Positions 1 through 7,434 of a DNA stretch of 34,564 nucleotides are shown piece after piece. The notes beneath the pieces are model-generated. The model searched no databases. It was not told where the DNA came from and saw only the letters and a program-made list of their open reading frames with translations. Source of the DNA: an uncultured Lentisphaerota bacterium. GTDB taxonomy: Bacteria; Verrucomicrobiota; Kiritimatiellia; RFP12; UBA1067. Every line of letters begins with the position of its first letter. Position 1 is the first letter of the stretch. The DNA lies in NCBI GenBank assembly GCA_900321575.1, contig ONWT01000110.1:1-34564 (forward strand), written 5' to 3'. The translations under genes and the position numbers were made by a program.

Positions 1-69
1 AAAGGGCGGCCCGATCTCAAGGCGGCGCTTGACGCGGCGATAACGGAACTCAAGGAGCGGCGGAAATGA
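1..69 (+). CDS. 3' end of an upstream gene, possibly an amino-acid-type solute-binding (SBP family 3) domain protein
   Basis: Frame 1 reads KGRPDLKAALDAAITELKERRK* and ends in TGA at 67-69, overlapping the next ATG (ATGA). The KG..DL..ALD.AI.EL pattern resembles the C-terminal helix of family 3 solute-binding proteins, but only 22 codons are visible. Confidence 0.45.
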   Translation, partial: KGRPDLKAALDAAITELKERRK

Positions 70-1718
70 AAATGCGGCAAAGGCGCCTTGTGACGCGGCT
101 GATACTGTCGGTCATAATCGCGTTTCTCGCTTCGATGGTGCTCACATGGGCGCTTCATGCGAGAATCACAAAGCGCGAAATGACCAAACTTTTCGACAAG
201 GTCTTCTCGGATGTCGGCGCCGATATACGTAGCGTGGTCGACAGCCGAATGATACGCAAGGCGATGATTCTTCGCGACTGCTACTACGAGATGCGCAACG
301 AGCCGTGGTGGAACGATCCGGACGAGTCGAGCCGCCGCCTGAAAGAGCTTGCGACAGATCTGGGGGTTGACGAAGTCATCGTCGCCAATTCAGATGGATG
401 GCTCACCCACAGCGCACGGCGCGACGAGGTAATGGCGCTGAATTTCTGCGAGGCCGAGGGGCAGGCCCGTGAATTTGCGGATCTCCTGACCACCAAGACT
501 GAAATCGCGCAACCGCTTTTGCCAAATTCGCTGCGCGGCGAAAAGATCAAGTATGTCGGCGTATGGCTCCCTGATGGAGGCTTCGTGCAAGTCGGCGGCA
601 AGGAGGCAAGCGTTCGGAACATTTCGCGCACGGCCTTGACCGGTCTTACGAGAGACTGGCATGTGAGCGGTTCGGAGGGCGGCATCTTCATCACCACGGC
701 TGGAGGTACGGTCGTTTCGCATCCCAAGGCCGGCTACGAAGGGCGCCAATGGAAGATTCCCGGGGACGATTTCTATTGGGAGAAGCGCATTATCGAAGGC
801 TTCCCCGTTTACATCGTGGTGCCAAAGTCCGCCACAGTGGCGGACAGGCGAGTTCTCGTTACGACTTCGGCATTCCTGAACGGCATGGCGCTCGTCTTCG
901 CCGCGATACTCGTGGGCGTTGTTATCGCGCGCTACATACAAGACAGAATGCGCGAACAGTCCGCAAAAGAAATGGCGATGGCGAGATGCATTCAGGAAGG
1001 CGCGATGCCGAGAGTGTTTCCTCCATTCCCGGACGAACGCAGAATCGACATATTCGCGATGATGAACACCGCCAAAGAGGTCGGTGGAGATTTCTACGAT
1101 TTCTACTTTACGGGACACAACAAGGTGGTGTTTCTCATTGCCGATGTGAGCGGCAAGGGTGTCGGCGCGGCGCTTTATATGATGAGAGCGAAGACGACGA
1201 TCAAGGGTATTGCGCAGACAGGCTTGCCGATCGACGAGGTCGCCAAGCTGTCCAACGACGCGCTGAGCCGCGACAACGACGCGAACATGTTCGTGACCGT
1301 GTGGATCGGCGAGATCAATCTCGATACAGGTGTTCTGCAATATGTGAACGCGGGGCACAACCCGCCGATTTCGATTTGCGCTTCGGGCAAGGTGGACTAT
1401 ATGAAGGCAAGATCGGGGCTGGCGTTCGGTGCCATGCCCGGCGCGAAGTATAAATCGCACGAAGTCAAGCTTGAGAAGGGCGACACGATATATCTTTATA
1501 CGGACGGCATAACGGAGCAACCCAACATAAAGGGCGAACTTTACGGCGAAGAACGGCTTATCGCAGTATTGAAGTCGCGACTGGAAAGCGGAGTAAAGGC
1601 TGTGGATGGAGCTTTCTCACCGCTCATCGACATAATCTTCAACGACACCATGAATTATGGCGGCGAAGCCGAGCAGGCCGACGATTGCACCCAACTTGTG
1701 CTGCGTTACAACGGCTGA
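66..1718 (+). CDS. Membrane-bound SpoIIE/RsbU-like PP2C (PPM) serine phosphatase with extracytoplasmic sensor region
   Basis: Two hydrophobic segments flank a ~230 aa region. C-terminal SpoIIE motifs are present: VGGDFYD, IADVSGKG, NAGHNPP, YTDGITE, DDCT. Confidence 0.9.
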   Translation: MKMRQRRLVTRLILSVIIAFLASMVLTWALHARITKREMTKLFDKVFSDVGADIRSVVDSRMIRKAMILRDCYYEMRNEPWWNDPDESSRRLKELATDLGVDEVIVANSDGWLTHSARRDEVMALNFCEAEGQAREFADLLTTKTEIAQPLLPNSLRGEKIKYVGVWLPDGGFVQVGGKEASVRNISRTALTGLTRDWHVSGSEGGIFITTAGGTVVSHPKAGYEGRQWKIPGDDFYWEKRIIEGFPVYIVVPKSATVADRRVLVTTSAFLNGMALVFAAILVGVVIARYIQDRMREQSAKEMAMARCIQEGAMPRVFPPFPDERRIDIFAMMNTAKEVGGDFYDFYFTGHNKVVFLIADVSGKGVGAALYMMRAKTTIKGIAQTGLPIDEVAKLSNDALSRDNDANMFVTVWIGEINLDTGVLQYVNAGHNPPISICASGKVDYMKARSGLAFGAMPGAKYKSHEVKLEKGDTIYLYTDGITEQPNIKGELYGEERLIAVLKSRLESGVKAVDGAFSPLIDIIFNDTMNYGGEAEQADDCTQLVLRYNG

Positions 1719-1822: not shown

Positions 1823-1831
1823 ATTATATCA
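1823..1831 (-). promoter_or_regulatory. Extended -10 element TGATATAAT pointing toward the phosphatase 3' end
   Basis: Minus strand reads ATTTGATATAATAA, matching the motif found upstream of several operons in this window. Confidence 0.5.
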
Positions 1832-1980: not shown

Positions 1981-2134
1981 GAAGTCTACCGCGCCAGACT
2001 GACAAGTCTACCGCGCTAGACTGGGAAGTCTACCGCGCCGAACTGGGAAGTCTACCGCGGTAAACTTCATAATCTACCGCGCTAGACTTCGTAATCTACC
2101 GCGGTAGATTTCACAACCTGCCGCGCTAGACTTC
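1981..2134. repeat. Tandem array of seven 22-bp imperfect palindromes, consensus GAAGTCTACCGCGGTAGACTTC
   Basis: Units start at 1981, 2003, 2025, 2047, 2069, 2091 and 2113: GAAGTCTACCGCGCCAGACTGA, CAAGTCTACCGCGCTAGACTGG, GAAGTCTACCGCGCCGAACTGG, GAAGTCTACCGCGGTAAACTTC, ATAATCTACCGCGCTAGACTTC, GTAATCTACCGCGGTAGATTTC, ACAACCTGCCGCGCTAGACTTC. Confidence 0.95.
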
Positions 2135-2316
2135 ATCTTTCTTGCGGATAATCTGCATCACCCCTCTAACTGAAGTCAACATGTGCCGCGTTTGTTCGTG
2201 CGAACAACTAGGCGGAACGGCAGTTATATATGCCCATCTCAAGCCGATCATCTGGATAGCGAGCGAACGTTGGCTCCAAGATGTGGCCGAAAGTTTCGGT
2301 GATCCAACCAGACGCC

Positions 2317-2346
2317 TTGCGCACACTCGGTAGAAAATAGTATAAT
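2317..2346 (+). promoter_or_regulatory. Sigma70-type promoter for the GT10 gene
   Basis: TTGCGC (2317-2322), 18 nt, then TATAAT (2341-2346). ATG follows 9 nt later with no Shine-Dalgarno. The same TTGCGC-18-TATAAT occurs before infA. Confidence 0.65.
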
Positions 2347-2355
2347 ACGTGGCAT

Positions 2356-3360
2356 ATGAACACAATAAGATATTGGACATCTCATGATAATAAGTCTTCG
2401 GCATATTGGAATGAGTGGTTTACCGCAACGTCTAGTGTGGTAAACCCACTAGAATTAGAGTTTTTGTATGATGAAAAGGCCCCTGATTATCTTTTTGTAA
2501 CAGAGCATATATACCATATTCCTCGGAGATTTAGAGAGTTTATTGAGTTAAACGATGGTCGTCGCATATCTGTTTTCGCAGGGGGCGAAGCGATTTCGCC
2601 TGATATGAATCTCTTTGACTATGCGTGTAGCTTTGATAAAACGCTGGTAAATGGAGACAGGTGTACCAGAAAGCCGCCATGTCTGTTCTTCAAGCATCAC
2701 ATATTCACACCATTAACTGAAGGATGTAAGGATGTTGTGTCAGAGCTGAAAAGTAAAACGGGTTTTTGCAACTTTATCTATTCTAATCCATCTGCCCACC
2801 CAAGACGTGATCAGTTGTTTTATGCAATTAGTCAATATAGGCAGGTAGACGCATTGGGACCACATCTAAATAATATAGGCAATAGGACTTCTCGAACATC
2901 GCATAACTGGCGAAGAATTCTTGTTGAGATGAAAAGACCTTATAAGTTTTCAATTGCTGCTGAAAATGCATGTTATGATGGATATGTGACAGAGAAGCTG
3001 ATATCTAGCTTTCAAGCACACACGATACCGATATATTGGGGTAGTCCTTCTGTCGCGGAAGAATTTAATCCAAAGGCCTTTATTAATGCCAATAAGTTAT
3101 CTGACGAGGAATTGATTGCTTTGGTCAAGAATATAGATGCGAATGATGAGTTGTGGTGTGAAATCGCTTCGCAACCTGCAATGACTAATGAACAGCAAGC
3201 AAATTTAGCCGTCGAAAGCGATCGGTTCGTAAAATTCAGTGCCGCTATATTCGATGCACGACCGCTAGAAGAAAAGAAGCGTGTGCCGGCAGGCTATTGG
3301 AATGATATTTATAAAAGATCGTTGATGAGGTGCGGCATGCCAAAATGGTTACGGTTTTGA
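2356..3360 (+). CDS. Glycosyltransferase family 10, alpha-1,3/4-fucosyltransferase-like
   Basis: GT10 motif YKFSIAAEN...GYVTEKL...AHTIPIYWG and FCNFIYSN, as in Helicobacter FucT-type enzymes. Confidence 0.88.
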   Translation: MNTIRYWTSHDNKSSAYWNEWFTATSSVVNPLELEFLYDEKAPDYLFVTEHIYHIPRRFREFIELNDGRRISVFAGGEAISPDMNLFDYACSFDKTLVNGDRCTRKPPCLFFKHHIFTPLTEGCKDVVSELKSKTGFCNFIYSNPSAHPRRDQLFYAISQYRQVDALGPHLNNIGNRTSRTSHNWRRILVEMKRPYKFSIAAENACYDGYVTEKLISSFQAHTIPIYWGSPSVAEEFNPKAFINANKLSDEELIALVKNIDANDELWCEIASQPAMTNEQQANLAVESDRFVKFSAAIFDARPLEEKKRVPAGYWNDIYKRSLMRCGMPKWLRF

Positions 3361-4302
3361 TTCTGGCAGTTTAAGCAATTCACCTAAACGATAATCCCAT
3401 TCAACTGGTTCAAAAGGCGTCATGCCGGCAAAGTGACAAAATGTCAATTCGCCAACTCTAAGTTGTGTGCCATCTACATAGAAGTCTACTCTTACAAAAG
3501 GGAATCGCGTTGCAAGTTTGCGGGCAACGCACAGCATTTCATTCCACTGTGGAGGTTTTGCAATCTCTGATTTGTTCACATTATAATGCTGCTTTATCGA
3601 AAGTCTCTCAAAGTTGGAAGAAAAGAATGTAAATGTCAGTTGCGCGTGTCCTTTATGTCTATTCTGCGCAATGAACATATTCAACGGCTCGCCGTTGTAG
3701 CAAAAGAACTTGTAGTCTGGCAAATCTCCGCATGCTTCAATGTATTTCTCTGCAACAATTTGCGGTTTTATCCCTTTGTAGCACCATTCAAAGAAATCAT
3801 AATAGTGATTGGACGAGGGACTCATCCAATCGTGAAGTTTCTTTTTGGTCGCCTCAACATCAAGATGGCTTTTGTCGGTACAGATTATGTTCTGTCCCGA
3901 ACCCCAATTAACTTTTAAGACAAACTTATTTGGCAAAGAGTTAAAATCTATGTCGTCTACATCTTCGTATACGCCTATAACAGGGACAAGATATTCCGCT
4001 CCAACCGTTTTCGAGATGTAGTCGCGAACCAATACCTTGTCGGCACATGTTTTGATAAGAGGATCATGGTAGTTTAAGTTTAGCCATTGGAGCTTCTCAT
4101 TAAAGCTTTTGGGATGAATTAGATCGGGAGAATACCCAACTGATTTTCTAAACATGCTGGATATGCAATATTCAATTTGCTTTTTTGTGAGACCTCTAAA
4201 TCTGTTTGCGTATAACCATGCGAATTTTGGTGAATGCCGGAAGCAATTGGCACAAAAGGACAAGGTATGGCGAAGAGGCTTGATTAGTTTGTCTTTCTGC
4301 AT
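3349..4302 (-). CDS. TupA-like ATP-grasp fold amidoligase
   Basis: Motifs PKSFNEKLQWL, ADKVLVRDY, LPNKFVLKVNWGSG, DYKFFCYNG, FVRVDFY, GELTF. Its 3' end overlaps the convergent GT10 gene by 12 bp. Confidence 0.88.
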   Translation of the reverse strand: MQKDKLIKPLRHTLSFCANCFRHSPKFAWLYANRFRGLTKKQIEYCISSMFRKSVGYSPDLIHPKSFNEKLQWLNLNYHDPLIKTCADKVLVRDYISKTVGAEYLVPVIGVYEDVDDIDFNSLPNKFVLKVNWGSGQNIICTDKSHLDVEATKKKLHDWMSPSSNHYYDFFEWCYKGIKPQIVAEKYIEACGDLPDYKFFCYNGEPLNMFIAQNRHKGHAQLTFTFFSSNFERLSIKQHYNVNKSEIAKPPQWNEMLCVARKLATRFPFVRVDFYVDGTQLRVGELTFCHFAGMTPFEPVEWDYRLGELLKLPESKP

Positions 4303-4331
4303 TAGAACACCCCGCTTTTAAGATATGTTTT

Positions 4332-5207
4332 TCAAGTTTTGCGCCTATGCGGAAATACACAGAAGTCATTTGCAAGGAATCTGGCATTTGGAATGGAAAT
4401 GTCTGATATTTGCATTCCGTTTTTCCACAACAACCATGCCAAAGACAGTTGGTCCCTACGAGAGTATTTTTCTATCATTTCCCACCATTCGCGCATCATG
4501 GCAATTACTGATGGTTCGTTGTGGCGCCTGTACAGAATGCCGTTTTCGGTCAGGCCATAGTTTTTCGGCATCCCAGACGATGAGACGAGCCTTCGCTCTT
4601 GAAGAATCTTTCTAGGGTTGTCGAGGAACTCCGACAGAACAAAATCAAACTCTTGGTAGATGCAATTACGCGTCGGATGTCTAGGTAAAATGAAAGGCAT
4701 GCCGATATCACGGATGGCATTAAAGAGGTAGGGTGAAAGTATATCGATGTTTGCATCAATATATATGCTCTCATTGTATTCGGGAAACAATACATGAGGA
4801 TGCATTTTGTGCCAACGATTATTTCTGGTGTTGTCGAGCTGATTAAAGGCTAAAGGCTTGATTTCCCAAATCCCAATATGCCCGGCTGCAATGTCCTCAG
4901 CATCATCCGTAAAGCATATATAATCCCAATCTGGATTTATATATCCAGGGCAAGCGATTTCCCTTATGTCATCATAGCCATTTGTGATGCAGGTATATAT
5001 GACAGAGGATGCTTTGCGTGTTTTTTTGTTGGCAAGATAGCTGTTTATGGCCTGGTTGTCGATGCGTCGCACATGCGTCGCTTTAGGTAGTAGCTTGGCA
5101 GTCTCTGTGTAGTAAGACTTTCCCCTTATCCAAAAAGGGAAATCTCTTTTAAGTCTATACCATATACCCCATGGTGAGGAAAGATAAGTCTTGATTCGAA
5201 GTTTCAT
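4332..5207 (-). CDS. DUF616 (TOD1/MUCI70-like) glycosyltransferase domain protein
   Basis: Motifs VIYTCITNGYD, YICFTD, KMHPH..FPEY..SIYID, HPTRNCIYQE, RDQLS. Start placed at ATG 5207 because ATG 5237 overlaps the predicted -10 element. Confidence 0.8.
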   Translation of the reverse strand: MKLRIKTYLSSPWGIWYRLKRDFPFWIRGKSYYTETAKLLPKATHVRRIDNQAINSYLANKKTRKASSVIYTCITNGYDDIREIACPGYINPDWDYICFTDDAEDIAAGHIGIWEIKPLAFNQLDNTRNNRWHKMHPHVLFPEYNESIYIDANIDILSPYLFNAIRDIGMPFILPRHPTRNCIYQEFDFVLSEFLDNPRKILQERRLVSSSGMPKNYGLTENGILYRRHNEPSVIAMMREWWEMIEKYSRRDQLSLAWLLWKNGMQISDISIPNARFLANDFCVFPHRRKT

Positions 5208-5225
5208 TGCTAGATGTAATTTACA

Positions 5226-5317
5226 ATATTGTATCATATTATTCCTACGTGATGTGTGATGAAATTACTATTCGGTAATTTTATTTAACCATGATCAAGT
5301 AAAATTTGATACAATAT
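5226..5317. promoter_or_regulatory. Dyad-symmetric bidirectional promoter with central palindromic site
   Basis: TGATACAATAT occurs on minus (5236-5226) and on plus (5307-5317). The palindrome AAATTAC-N6-GTAATTT (5262-5281) shares the same centre (5271/5272). Confidence 0.6.
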
Positions 5318-5359
5318 AAAGAAATTCAAAAAAGATGGAAGTTGTTGCCAGCGAGCTAT

Positions 5360-6610
5360 ATGATGCCGCGTATTAGAGAAATGATTGAAAAGGTTCGTGT
5401 GTGGGGGTTGACGGGAATCGTCAATTTCTTCAAGAGGGAATATGCATTTAGGATTCAGCGTCGTCGGCTTGAACGGCTTGCGCGAAAATCCAAAGCCGCG
5501 ATCCAAGTGCGTGGTATAACCGTGATTGGTGATATAACGTCAAGGGTTTCGTTGAGCAAAACTTTGCGGGACTTCATTCTTGATTTGAGAGACGCTGGCG
5601 TACCATGTCAGTCGTATGACACATGTTTAAGGCCAGAGATTCCGCCGAAAGATTCCGTGCGCGTTGTGACACCTCCTGGCGAATTTGATCTTCATCGCTA
5701 CTCACACATTGTCATGATGTATCGTAGCCCTTTGCCGAAGGATGCCGGAGTCGGCCATGTTTGCGCGAGAATCGCGTTCCATGACAGTGAGCACGGTGTT
5801 CACGATACGATGCCGTTTTTGCGAGAGAGCGGCGACGCGATAATCGCAATGTCGGACTTCAACTACAACTACTTCAAGATGGCATTTGTCAACCAGCCAG
5901 TTTACAAGATAACATATCCATTTCGTTTCAAGTCAAGAGTGGCTACACCCCGCGAGGAGTTGCGCAAAAAGTATGGCATTTCGCTGGATGATTTTGTCGT
6001 GTTCTTCAACTTTGACTTTGGTTCATATTACCGCAAGAACATCCCTGCCGCGCTAAATGCCTTTGCGTTAGCATTTAAGGGCGATGCAAAGGCTAAACTG
6101 CTTTTCAAGACAAAGGGGGCGAAAGAAAACCCAAGACAGTTCTCGGAAATGATGCGGCTTGTCGCGACGCTAGGAATCGGCAATCAGTTTGTACATGTTG
6201 CTAATTATCTTCCAAGGGCAGACGTTGACGGCCTTACTTCCGCATGCGACGTGTATATGTCGCTTCACAAATCGGAAGGTTTTGGAATAGGAATGGCCGA
6301 GGCCATGAGCCAGGGCAAGCCTGTTGTCGCAACAAACTGGAGCGCAAATACTGAGTTCTGCAAAGAGGATACTGCATGGCTTGTCCCATATGACATGGTG
6401 CCGATTCTACCGCATGAATATCCACCTTCCATGGTCGAATGGGCGAGCGCGGATGTTTCTGTCGCGGCGAAGATGCTTCGTGAGATACGTAGCAAACCAG
6501 ATGTGGTGCGAAAAAGAGCCGAGTTGGGCCGACGTTTCATAAAAGAGCGATATTCTATTGAACGGTTCAAGTCCGATGTTGATCGTTTTTTAGATAGTGG
6601 CGTAGAATGA
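5360..6610 (+). CDS. Glycosyltransferase family 4 (GT-B)
   Basis: Motifs RKNI..ALNAF and DVYMSLHKSEGFGIGMAEAMSQGKPVVATNWS (EGFG-x4-EA). Start uncertain; ATG 5360 chosen because TTG 5306 overlaps the -10 element. Confidence 0.88.
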   Translation: MMPRIREMIEKVRVWGLTGIVNFFKREYAFRIQRRRLERLARKSKAAIQVRGITVIGDITSRVSLSKTLRDFILDLRDAGVPCQSYDTCLRPEIPPKDSVRVVTPPGEFDLHRYSHIVMMYRSPLPKDAGVGHVCARIAFHDSEHGVHDTMPFLRESGDAIIAMSDFNYNYFKMAFVNQPVYKITYPFRFKSRVATPREELRKKYGISLDDFVVFFNFDFGSYYRKNIPAALNAFALAFKGDAKAKLLFKTKGAKENPRQFSEMMRLVATLGIGNQFVHVANYLPRADVDGLTSACDVYMSLHKSEGFGIGMAEAMSQGKPVVATNWSANTEFCKEDTAWLVPYDMVPILPHEYPPSMVEWASADVSVAAKMLREIRSKPDVVRKRAELGRRFIKERYSIERFKSDVDRFLDSGVE

Positions 6611-7434
6611 GTGCCGCTGCAAATGATATAGCCGCCAATGGCAAGGTCAGTCTGCGGAAGTGGCAACTAGAGCGATTGCCAGTTCTTCGTGAGACGCGAT
6701 TTCTTGTATCTAATCATTTTGATGATGTTACGATAGTTGCGTATTCCTTCCCTGCAGAAGGCGATGAAGATGCTTTTGACTTTTTAGAGTGTTCCATATT
6801 GCAGAGCTGGGCTGTTCTCGGGATGTTAAAGGCAACGATTGTGTCAAATCGACGATTCCCCAAGGTTGATGCATTCGCCGAGGCGCATGCCGACTGGGTC
6901 GATGTTCAGATTGAGCCGTCGCTGGTTCCTGGAAGGATTGAGTCGATGAGTGCAGATTGCGATGGTCGCTTGCATTCCCGCTTCAATACACCATATTGCC
7001 TTGTTGTGCAGGACGATGGCTTCCCTCTTAAAAACAATCTTGATGAGTTTCTTGGTAAGTATGACTACGTGGGCGCGCCATATGTCCGAATCGCGTGGTG
7101 GCGTTCTGTTATTTGCGCCTTGCTTGGGATGTGGGTTTCCAACGGTGGCTTCTCCTTGAGGTCTAAGCGGATATGCGAGGCTGCGGCGTATTGGTGGGAA
7201 CGGAAATACAAATCATGTCATCCTAGCGAGAAGACTATTGATGACCTTTACTACACTAGGACATTGCCGCTTCGACATTTGTCGTATAGAATCAAATACA
7301 AAATCGCAAATCACCGAACAGCCCTTCGCTTTTCGTACGACGATATAGTTTGTCAGCCAATCACGGTAAAACCTTTTGGATTTCACCGAGCTTCGACATT
7401 CGAGTTGTTAAGGCAGAAGTTTCCTGATATGTGA
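6607..7434 (+). CDS. DUF5672-family protein (putative GT-A-like glycosyltransferase)
   Basis: Motifs LVVQDDG, YDYVGAPY, NGGFSLRSK, PFGFH. ATGA overlap with the GT4 gene. Confidence 0.75.
   Translation: MSAAANDIAANGKVSLRKWQLERLPVLRETRFLVSNHFDDVTIVAYSFPAEGDEDAFDFLECSILQSWAVLGMLKATIVSNRRFPKVDAFAEAHADWVDVQIEPSLVPGRIESMSADCDGRLHSRFNTPYCLVVQDDGFPLKNNLDEFLGKYDYVGAPYVRIAWWRSVICALLGMWVSNGGFSLRSKRICEAAAYWWERKYKSCHPSEKTIDDLYYTRTLPLRHLSYRIKYKIANHRTALRFSYDDIVCQPITVKPFGFHRASTFELLRQKFPDM

Follow-up and report, generated by a model that had tools for sequence, protein, structure and literature searches.

What is the seven-copy tandem array of a 22-bp, palindrome-like unit that precedes an AT-rich glycan cassette in an uncultured Kiritimatiellia bacterium? 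The array occupies positions 1981-2134 of contig ONWT01000110.1 (contig C84 in our numbering), whose 34,564 nucleotides are referred to here as the window. The source genome (G000) is a metagenome-assembled genome (MAG) of 1.44 Mb in 119 contigs and is 82% complete. An initial annotation of the same DNA had proposed sites for a dimeric protein of the iteron, centromere or nucleoid-organiser kind or, alternatively, a cruciform or hairpin element. Our analysis places the array in a dispersed family of intergenic elements, one copy of which stands directly upstream of the gene for an HU-like protein (L174) in a related genome. With a probability of about 0.5, we consider the window array to be an orphan target array of an L174-type paralogue of the HU-HIG clade, whose binding we infer; it is called an orphan because no HU-HIG-type gene is present within the window.

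The array was comprised of seven head-to-tail units with a 22-bp period and no insertions or deletions, as had been described. The CCGCG core was constant in all seven units, the six junction tetramers were GACA, GGGA, GGGA, TCAT, TCGT and TCAC, units 1-4 shared the left arm AAGTCTAC, and units 4-7 shared a terminal TTC, all in agreement with the initial annotation. Tandem Repeats Finder (TRF) reported a period of 22 with 6.9 copies (77% matches, score of 120), together with a period-44 row (score of 149). A two-unit pattern with at most two mismatches matched the G000 genome 18 + 5 times, compared with 0 + 1 for the reversed control pattern, and the array is far above the chance expectation. 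The unit had been read as a palindrome undergoing polarised decay. In 15 aligned copies, the left half TCTACCGCG and the ACT at unit positions 18-20 were invariant or nearly so, and positions 14-17 varied. The unit therefore behaves less like a decayed palindrome than like a direct repeat whose dyad symmetry is partial. This one-sided conservation fits the recognition of a site better than the upkeep of a stem. The array flanks of other copies were half-unit-like (right CCAAGTC..., left ...TTGG).

The array is not an assembly artefact; besides the contigs described here, the orthologous array on metagenome contig L145 (see below) supports it. A Logan contig of 579 nt (run X1, possibly the source sample) spanned positions 1919-2497 with no differences. 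Contigs from run X2, which belongs to another study, covered positions 1871-1991 and 2026-2267, and none bridged the entire array. The summed contig depth in runs X1-X3 was elevated 3- to 8-fold over the array bins at positions 1940-2087, where loose ends led into the flanks of two further copies in G000 (on contigs C92 and C49), so that this site accumulates reads that stem from the sibling arrays.

A search of the genome and its relatives showed that the array is not a lone minisatellite, with copies in G000, two other MAGs and metagenomes. In G000, three seven-unit arrays of the TCTACCGCG unit were present, namely that of the window, C49:1172-1325 and C92:23711-23864, and their flanks were unrelated. 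A three-unit pattern scan identified eight loci in G077, a related MAG labelled Kiritimatiellae, and one locus in another MAG, G078; 13 of the 24 metagenome stretches also carried the family. There were 1-8 copies per genome and 5-9 units per copy (copies cut by a contig end were left out), and the window array was 77-86% identical to the eight G077 arrays. In most copies from different loci, the unit variants followed one common order (palindromic, CCTAACT-type, CCAGACT-type, palindromic, CYAGACT, CYTAATT, palindromic). This canonical element has full palindromes at units 1, 4 and 7, right arms of the CCTAAC/TT type in units 2 and 6, and CCAGACT/CYAGACT in units 3 and 5; the window copy has diverged from the common order. 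Since the order is shared across loci, a block of ~154 bp was copied whole and was not grown separately at each site. The conserved order was evident only after the G077 and metagenome copies had been added, as the unit-by-unit positional homology among the three G000 arrays alone was no better in register 0 than in shifted registers.

The array is also better conserved than its flank. Relative to L145, a metagenome contig orthologous to the window locus, 1 of 84 overlapping array positions differed, compared with 23 of 214 flank positions (Fisher p of 0.004). The corresponding figures for the C49 copy and L147 were 5/154 and 29/294 (p of 0.014). No clean empty site was identified by BLAST of the array flanks against G000, and no orthologous array was found after the G077 homologue (only 69% identical) of the SpoIIE-type gene that precedes the window array.

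The link to a candidate partner came from a check for HU-like neighbours, which the initial annotation had proposed. A 254-aa gene in G077 (L174, also L116; contig C46) starts 31 bp from a seven-unit array of the TCTACCGCG family, which is 77% identical to the window array and lies within ~30 bp of the ribosome-binding site of the gene. L174 gave a weak match to PF14848 (HU-DNA_bdg), with a score of 28.8 bits, just below the cut-off of 30. At a paralogous locus in G077 (contig C34), the array was kept and a pseudogene fragment was present beside it. A PF14848-type gene in G000 (contig C106), a distant paralogue with 23% identity to L174, lies 84 bp from an array of another family. The first gene set consisted of 13 PF14848 matches in G000, G077 and G078, including five at or above the cut-off and one pseudogene fragment. 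A TRF array with a 21-24-bp period was detected in 10 of these 13 loci; by eye, 8 of 11 genes had at least three sites at 22-24-bp spacing within ~150 bp of the ATG, and one more had two.

The association was also present across the genus. Members of the family, collected with an alignment of 12 members (A3), were matched in 32 of 61 genus genomes; there were up to nine members per genome, often as adjacent gene pairs. The locus test comprised 29 HU-HIG loci from 29 other genus genomes and arrays with periods of 19-25 bp. An upstream array was present within 320 bp in 11/29 loci and within 1 kb in 17/29, while a downstream array was found in only 2/29 (p of 7e-4 for upstream vs downstream). 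Only one of 29 control loci, centred on SpoIIE homologues, had an array (Fisher p of 7e-6 vs 17/29). The proposal of a nucleoid-organiser-like dimeric protein is therefore supported indirectly, by the association with HU-like genes, and its iteron and centromere variants are not. The array-rich genome G023 gave no match at first; a looser threshold identified three weak family matches, two with a 22-bp array upstream. No other gene conserved beside the HU-HIG-type genes was found.

The array units differ between HU-HIG paralogues and are kept between orthologues. The loci at C106 in G000 and L179 in G008 both had AGTACTA-type units. Arrays of CCCTAGGGGTA were found at the locus L194 in G073. 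A contig end truncates the G000 orthologue of that gene (C96, 47% identity), and the CCCTAGGGGTA array family is present at many contig ends in that genome.

The L174-type protein was modelled with AlphaFold2 (pLDDT of 74.9). The best Foldseek match was PDB 4FMR, a Bacteroides 'putative bacterial DNA binding protein' (E-value of 1e-10 over 258 columns), and the C-terminal domain gave matches to TIG and immunoglobulin-like (Ig-like) domains. The nearest Atlas clusters were without names and carry PF14848, PF14734 and PF18291. By the model, L174 and its relatives are members of the HU-HIG clade, with a predicted HU-like, PF14848-like N-domain, an Ig-like C-domain and the 4FMR fold. In passages on this clade of the HU/IHF superfamily, Burroughs et al. 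(2017; PMC5499826) describe genes that diverge rapidly, are expanded in a lineage-specific manner, occur in pairs and lack operon partners. The Kiritimatiellae genes resemble that description in architecture, expansion (up to nine per genome), adjacent pairs, the lack of a conserved operon partner and fast divergence, here 14-22% identity to the first A3 sequence. They differ in that paralogue-specific arrays lie upstream, whereas no associated DNA repeats are described in those passages, and in belonging to the Kiritimatiellae (in the Planctomycetes-Verrucomicrobia-Chlamydiae (PVC) group) rather than to the Bacteroidetes.

Several observations on related loci are given for completeness. Two adjacent HU-HIG paralogues in G077 (L172/L176, contig C7) had one common upstream array of 9.6 units of 23 bp. 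By analogy with IHF, the frequent gene pairs in the genus suggest heterodimers. In Bacteroidota, 9 of 24 PF14848 loci had a 20-23-bp array within 1.5 kb, an uncontrolled count that serves as a lead only; the gene-array pattern may thus extend beyond the PVC group. Arrays with a 23-bp period (17.7 and 3.7 copies) were located just downstream of strong PF14848 genes at L210:2613-3019 and L209:2359-2443, also in Bacteroidota. An Alloprevotella-labelled Bacteroidota MAG (L082, L089, L105, L110, L127 and others) had 22-bp arrays of 4-5 units with the same TACCGCGGTA core as the present family and a conserved left flank at ~10 loci, and its single PF14848-like gene had no array in the ~390 bp upstream. 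Two 22-bp-period arrays of 7 and 21 units containing TCTACCGCGGG in a Sporosarcina genome (L090) matched the search pattern and are probably unrelated.

The TCTACCGCG family is part of a wider class. Whole-genome TRF analysis of G000 showed a sharp excess of arrays at periods of 22 (17 rows) and 23 (14 rows), with 36 merged arrays at periods of 20-24 bp, a few of which look coding. The units of the class differ and are mostly palindromic (e.g. AAAGTAGTACTACTTT, TACCCCTAGGGGTA, TTTTACCGCGGTAAAA and TTCTGCGCGCAGAA). Arrays of different types often lie side by side, and many are located at contig ends; they therefore probably break the assembly. Many immediately preceded a promoter with an extended -10 of the TGGTATAAT type, and the neighbours were ordinary housekeeping genes. 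Among 16 array-bearing intergenic regions, 12 were tandem, four divergent and none convergent, compared with a convergent baseline of 58 in 253 regions of at least 150 bp (binomial p of 0.03). The class thus avoids convergent intergenic regions, which is the opposite of the habit of repetitive extragenic palindromic (REP) elements and miniature inverted-repeat transposable elements (MITEs). There were no recurrent neighbour genes of the G000 arrays and no large paralogous regulator families in G000. Counts of palindromic hexamer cores, analysed for depletion or concentration in the arrays as restriction sites, were unremarkable. Two regions, C88:23250-24027 and C62:1-340, are composite non-coding regions with three to five array types around an AT-rich stretch; they are inverted, non-identical copies with an origin-like look. 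A tandem array with a 65/66/131-bp period (4.6-6.5 copies) was also present at C94:11820-12441.

The following mechanism would account for these observations. The window array is one copy of a ~154-bp dispersed cis-element with 5-9 units of 22 bp. The element belongs to a wider class of tandem arrays that is specific to the lineage, with dyad-symmetric units repeated every 21-24 bp, and each array family appears to be the cognate target of one paralogue in a rapidly diversifying HU-HIG-type family. A dimer of the HU-HIG type would recognise the unit core TCTACCGCG..ACT. Because 22 bp corresponds to two helical turns, successive dimers would be placed on one face of the helix and might assemble cooperatively, and the putative strong sites would be those units of the canonical element that are complete palindromes (1, 4 and 7). 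An array before the protein's own gene would allow autoregulation, and orphan arrays, all of which lie in intergenic regions with promoters, would bring that protein to further loci. At the window, recruitment to the 5' border of a variable glycan cassette would modulate local transcription or DNA architecture. We infer the physical binding, the form of the nucleic acid (duplex, cruciform or RNA), the cooperativity and the regulatory outcome, including any effect on the glycan cassette. A broader proposal is that HU-HIG proteins in general are sequence-specific array binders, with each fast-evolving paralogue co-diversifying with its own family of dyad-symmetric tandem arrays of ~22 bp per unit, one at the gene for the protein and the rest dispersed in intergenic DNA with promoters, as a private, lineage-specific form of chromatin-like marking or regulation or as a self/non-self tag in genome conflict. 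We regard this proposal as tentative and somewhat doubtful.

A number of points weigh against assigning the window array to an HU-HIG protein. Burroughs et al. deem sequence-specific DNA binding unlikely for this clade and note that the Ig domain fills the DNA cleft in 4FMR; in the same passages, a role in genome conflict, possibly through the binding of RNA or protein, is proposed (PMC5499826). Twelve of the 29 genus loci had no upstream array, although four of these have less than 250 bp of upstream sequence. The SpoIIE control is a different gene set and not length-matched intergenic DNA, and genomes that are related do not count as independent samples. G000, a genome that is incomplete and breaks at arrays, yielded no L174 orthologue, and no remnant of an L174-like gene was identified beside its three arrays (tblastn E-value of 0.43 or worse). 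The HU-HIG partner of the window array is thus hypothetical in its own genome. An upstream array could also be part of an HU-HIG promoter or gene cassette rather than a site for the protein; the arrays were located 60-350 bp from the nearest extended -10, without a fixed phase. Finally, the greater conservation of the array than of its flank can also come from gene conversion among copies.

Gene conversion also features in one alternative, by which the element would be a modular palindromic repeat, either selfish or neutral, comparable to BOX elements, bacterial interspersed mosaic elements (BIMEs) or MITEs. Such a repeat would be copied by itself, by recombination or by gene conversion, would change its unit number by slippage, and would have no host function; its adjacency to HU-HIG genes would reflect a shared origin or an insertion preference. 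The variation in unit number is consistent with this, including at orthologous sites (seven units at C49 and six at L122), as is the presence of the element after one G077 gene (L113) and its absence after the homologous G000 gene (C116). Unit position 14 alternates between G and C among strains and paralogues, which suggests conversion; the flanks that paralogous copies have in common vary in length (58-140 bp), and the copy number is low. Other observations point the other way. No Y1/RAYT, rve or DDE_Tnp_1 transposase was found in the array-rich genomes searched (G000, G023 and G077, all incomplete MAGs), and no target-site duplication was seen by eye. Convergent intergenic regions are the usual safe haven for selfish repeats, and none of the 16 array-bearing regions was convergent. 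The array was better conserved than its flank, and arrays lay upstream of HU-HIG genes in 17 loci and downstream in two, with paralogue-specific units. We therefore consider a repeat without host function unlikely. REP elements are defined as 20-40-bp hairpins that end on one side in an unpaired GTAG or CGTC tag (PMC3733652), whereas GTAG lies inside the symmetric arm here (..CGCGGTAGACT..). PF01797 (Y1 transposase) gave no matches in G000, which is 82% complete, and the tandem and divergent locations differ from the mostly gene-downstream, unidirectional or convergent locations of REP elements and BIMEs. The ends of the array (GAAGTCT...AGACTTC) are inverted, as in any array of palindromic units. 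A MITE would be expected to have a target-site duplication and a cognate transposase; ~14 flank groups showed no such duplication by eye, and rve and DDE_Tnp_1 gave no matches in the three incomplete MAGs.

The array might instead control the glycan cassette beside it, as an operator or in an enhancer-like way, through an ordinary transcription factor outside the HU-HIG family; an oligomerising regulator of palindromes that lie two helical turns apart would be an example. The dyad-symmetric units and 22-bp spacing, the position 200 bp upstream of a TATAAT hexamer and the first glycan gene, and the proximity of the class arrays to extended -10 promoters are in keeping with such a role. It is nevertheless improbable, as other copies flank unrelated genes, neither a recurrent neighbouring regulator nor a large paralogous regulator family was found in the genome, and the distance to the promoter is not fixed. 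We consider a plasmid-type iteron origin or partition centromere to be very improbable. The gamma origin of R6K has the same geometry of seven 22-bp repeats, and chlamydial plasmids carry 22-bp tandem repeats. The neighbours of the arrays are chromosomal (SpoIIE, glycosyltransferases and housekeeping genes), with no rep or par gene among those scanned, and there are three or more copies per genome. No parA/parB or parM/parR family was present among the 36 window open reading frames scanned, par families not having been searched genome-wide. The best plasmid and phage BLAST matches each had an E-value of 0.6, and the lead to the chlamydial plasmid repeats was dropped. A CRISPR array was excluded, as had been concluded from the letters, because the units abut without unique spacers. 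The initial annotation had not recognised the array as a named element, which agrees with the absence of any Rfam match and of any description of such arrays in the full-text literature searched. The Rfam scan of positions 1500-2600 returned nothing at threshold and only mir-BHRF1-2 below it (25.8 bits vs a threshold of 87).

An RNA element was also considered. The array would be transcribed in an untranslated region or between cistrons, and its long imperfect hairpin would stabilise, terminate or process the mRNA; as a variant, the hairpin might be the ligand of an HU-like protein, in line with a report on E. coli HU and REP325-derived RNA. As RNA, the window array was predicted to form one long hairpin (-73.6 kcal/mol on the + strand, z of -9.2), and the sibling arrays were also predicted to form long hairpins. 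In 22 of 23 copies, the opposite strand had the more stable fold, and the difference averaged 20 kcal/mol, of which ~12 kcal/mol is compositional. In 15 aligned seven-unit copies, the paired cells on the + strand amounted to 74.0% for the global hairpin, 57.1% for the unit-centred and 70.4% for the junction-centred register, and on the opposite strand to 81.0% for the global and 68.7% for the unit-centred register. At the L174 copy, the array follows a promoter-like site and precedes the ribosome-binding site, with the more stable of its strands in that direction, and in four non-orthologous loci the array begins 72-81 bp past a stop codon. RNA binding by Ig-fused HU-HIG proteins is among the suggestions in the passages of Burroughs et al. 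(PMC5499826), together with protein binding. Covariation in the three registers (global, unit-centred and junction-centred) was not above that of column shuffles on either strand (70-500 of 500 shuffles reached the observed value), and this test had little power because the mean column identity was 92%. The cruciform or hairpin alternative of the initial annotation thus gained no support from the covariation check in any register. Furthermore, the orientation to the flanking genes was mixed (~9 vs 4 groups), the sense strand of the window copy is the weaker one, four of the 16 array-bearing intergenic regions of the class are divergent, and no terminator was called in a consensus scan of the window. 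On balance, an RNA element appears to be an unlikely explanation, much as the selfish repeat does.

Among known systems, pneumococcal BOX elements are modular intergenic repeats with end modules, variable internal tandem units and a stable fold; no transposase and no cognate protein family is known for them. The window element resembles them in its modular, intergenic nature, variable unit number and stable structure, and differs in its internal unit, that of BOX being about twice as long, and in the absence of any sequence relation. The R6K, RK2 and lambda origins and the ARG and TyrR boxes have sites at a centre spacing of 21-23 bp that are bound cooperatively on one face, and several mix strong and weak sites. 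Each of these serves a single, defined origin or promoter next to the gene for Rep, O, ArgR or TyrR, whereas the window element occurs at dispersed sites, keeps its unit order as a block and has a candidate binder with an HU fold. IHF sites occur in BIMEs. The E. coli BIME/RIP and REP325 elements with HU and IHF (Qian et al. 2015; PMC4550694) share with the present arrays the dispersed intergenic palindromic clusters, the link to a protein of the HU/IHF fold and the potential to form cruciforms or RNA hairpins. They differ in that the partner there is the general HU or IHF and here a set of paralogue-specific candidates, and in that REP units are longer, alternate in orientation, carry the unpaired GTAG tag and are associated with RAYT genes. 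A 2026 preprint disputes the role in chromosome organisation.

The features of the window locus are listed in the table below. The glycan cassette (positions 2356-7434) contains further glycosyltransferases and has a GC content of 41-44%, compared with ~56% elsewhere. The homology to L145 ends at position 2347, just before the ATG, and L145 continues with a different glycan gene; the AT-rich cassette is therefore a replaceable, strain-variable glycan locus. The initial annotation had placed the array at the boundary of this cassette. The position looks incidental, because other copies adjoin unrelated genes. From its sequence context, the cassette mRNA is a candidate for a leaderless or near-leaderless transcript from the TATAAT at position 2341. 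A TATAAT only 6-9 nt before a start codon was observed both here (positions 2341-2358) and at C90 ~4360-4380 in G000, pointing to leaderless or near-leaderless mRNAs as a common feature of the organism. Of 25 copies, 14 had a leftward extended -10 in their left flank, and these fall into ~9 of the 14 flank groups. One RNA run covered the window at positions 1200-1417 only, outside the array.

Table. Positions of the array, its neighbours and example arrays of the wider class (window coordinates unless a contig is given).
Feature	Position	Strand	Remarks
Seven-unit 22-bp tandem array	1981..2134	.	Diverged member of the dispersed TCTACCGCG array family
Central unit 4	2047..2068	.	Junctions switch from purine-rich (GACA, GGGA) to pyrimidine-rich (TCAT, TCGT, TCAC); centre of the array-wide dyad
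Possible decayed eighth unit	2135..2156	.	Weak positional similarity only, judged by eye; low confidence
SpoIIE/PP2C-type phosphatase gene, upstream neighbour	66..1718	+	PF07228, E-value of 3e-50
Extended -10-like TGATATAAT, directed away from unit 1	1823..1831	-	149 bp from the array
Conserved non-coding leader from the array to the first glycan gene	2135..2347	+	89.3% identity with L145 over 214 columns
TATAAT hexamer, candidate promoter	2341..2346	+	9 nt before the ATG at 2356; no call in the consensus promoter scan, the -35 being absent
GT10 fucosyltransferase gene, downstream neighbour, first of the AT-rich glycan cassette	2356..3360	+	PF00852, E-value of 8e-17
Example class arrays, G000	C20:10686-10773, C106:1521-1609, C88:23250-24027, C62:75-340, C103:9920-10100		

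The analysis turns an odd repeat into a testable pairing between a large HU-like family with no known ligand and candidate cognate DNA or RNA elements that differ by paralogue. If the binding proves false, uncultured rumen Kiritimatiellae still have in these arrays a new family of modular repeats in intergenic DNA. If it proves true, the breaks in MAGs of these gut bacteria at such arrays would have an explanation, and orthogonal protein-array pairs would become available as engineering parts. The HU-HIG proteins would then gain a function, and the family would show how an architectural fold evolved sequence specificity.

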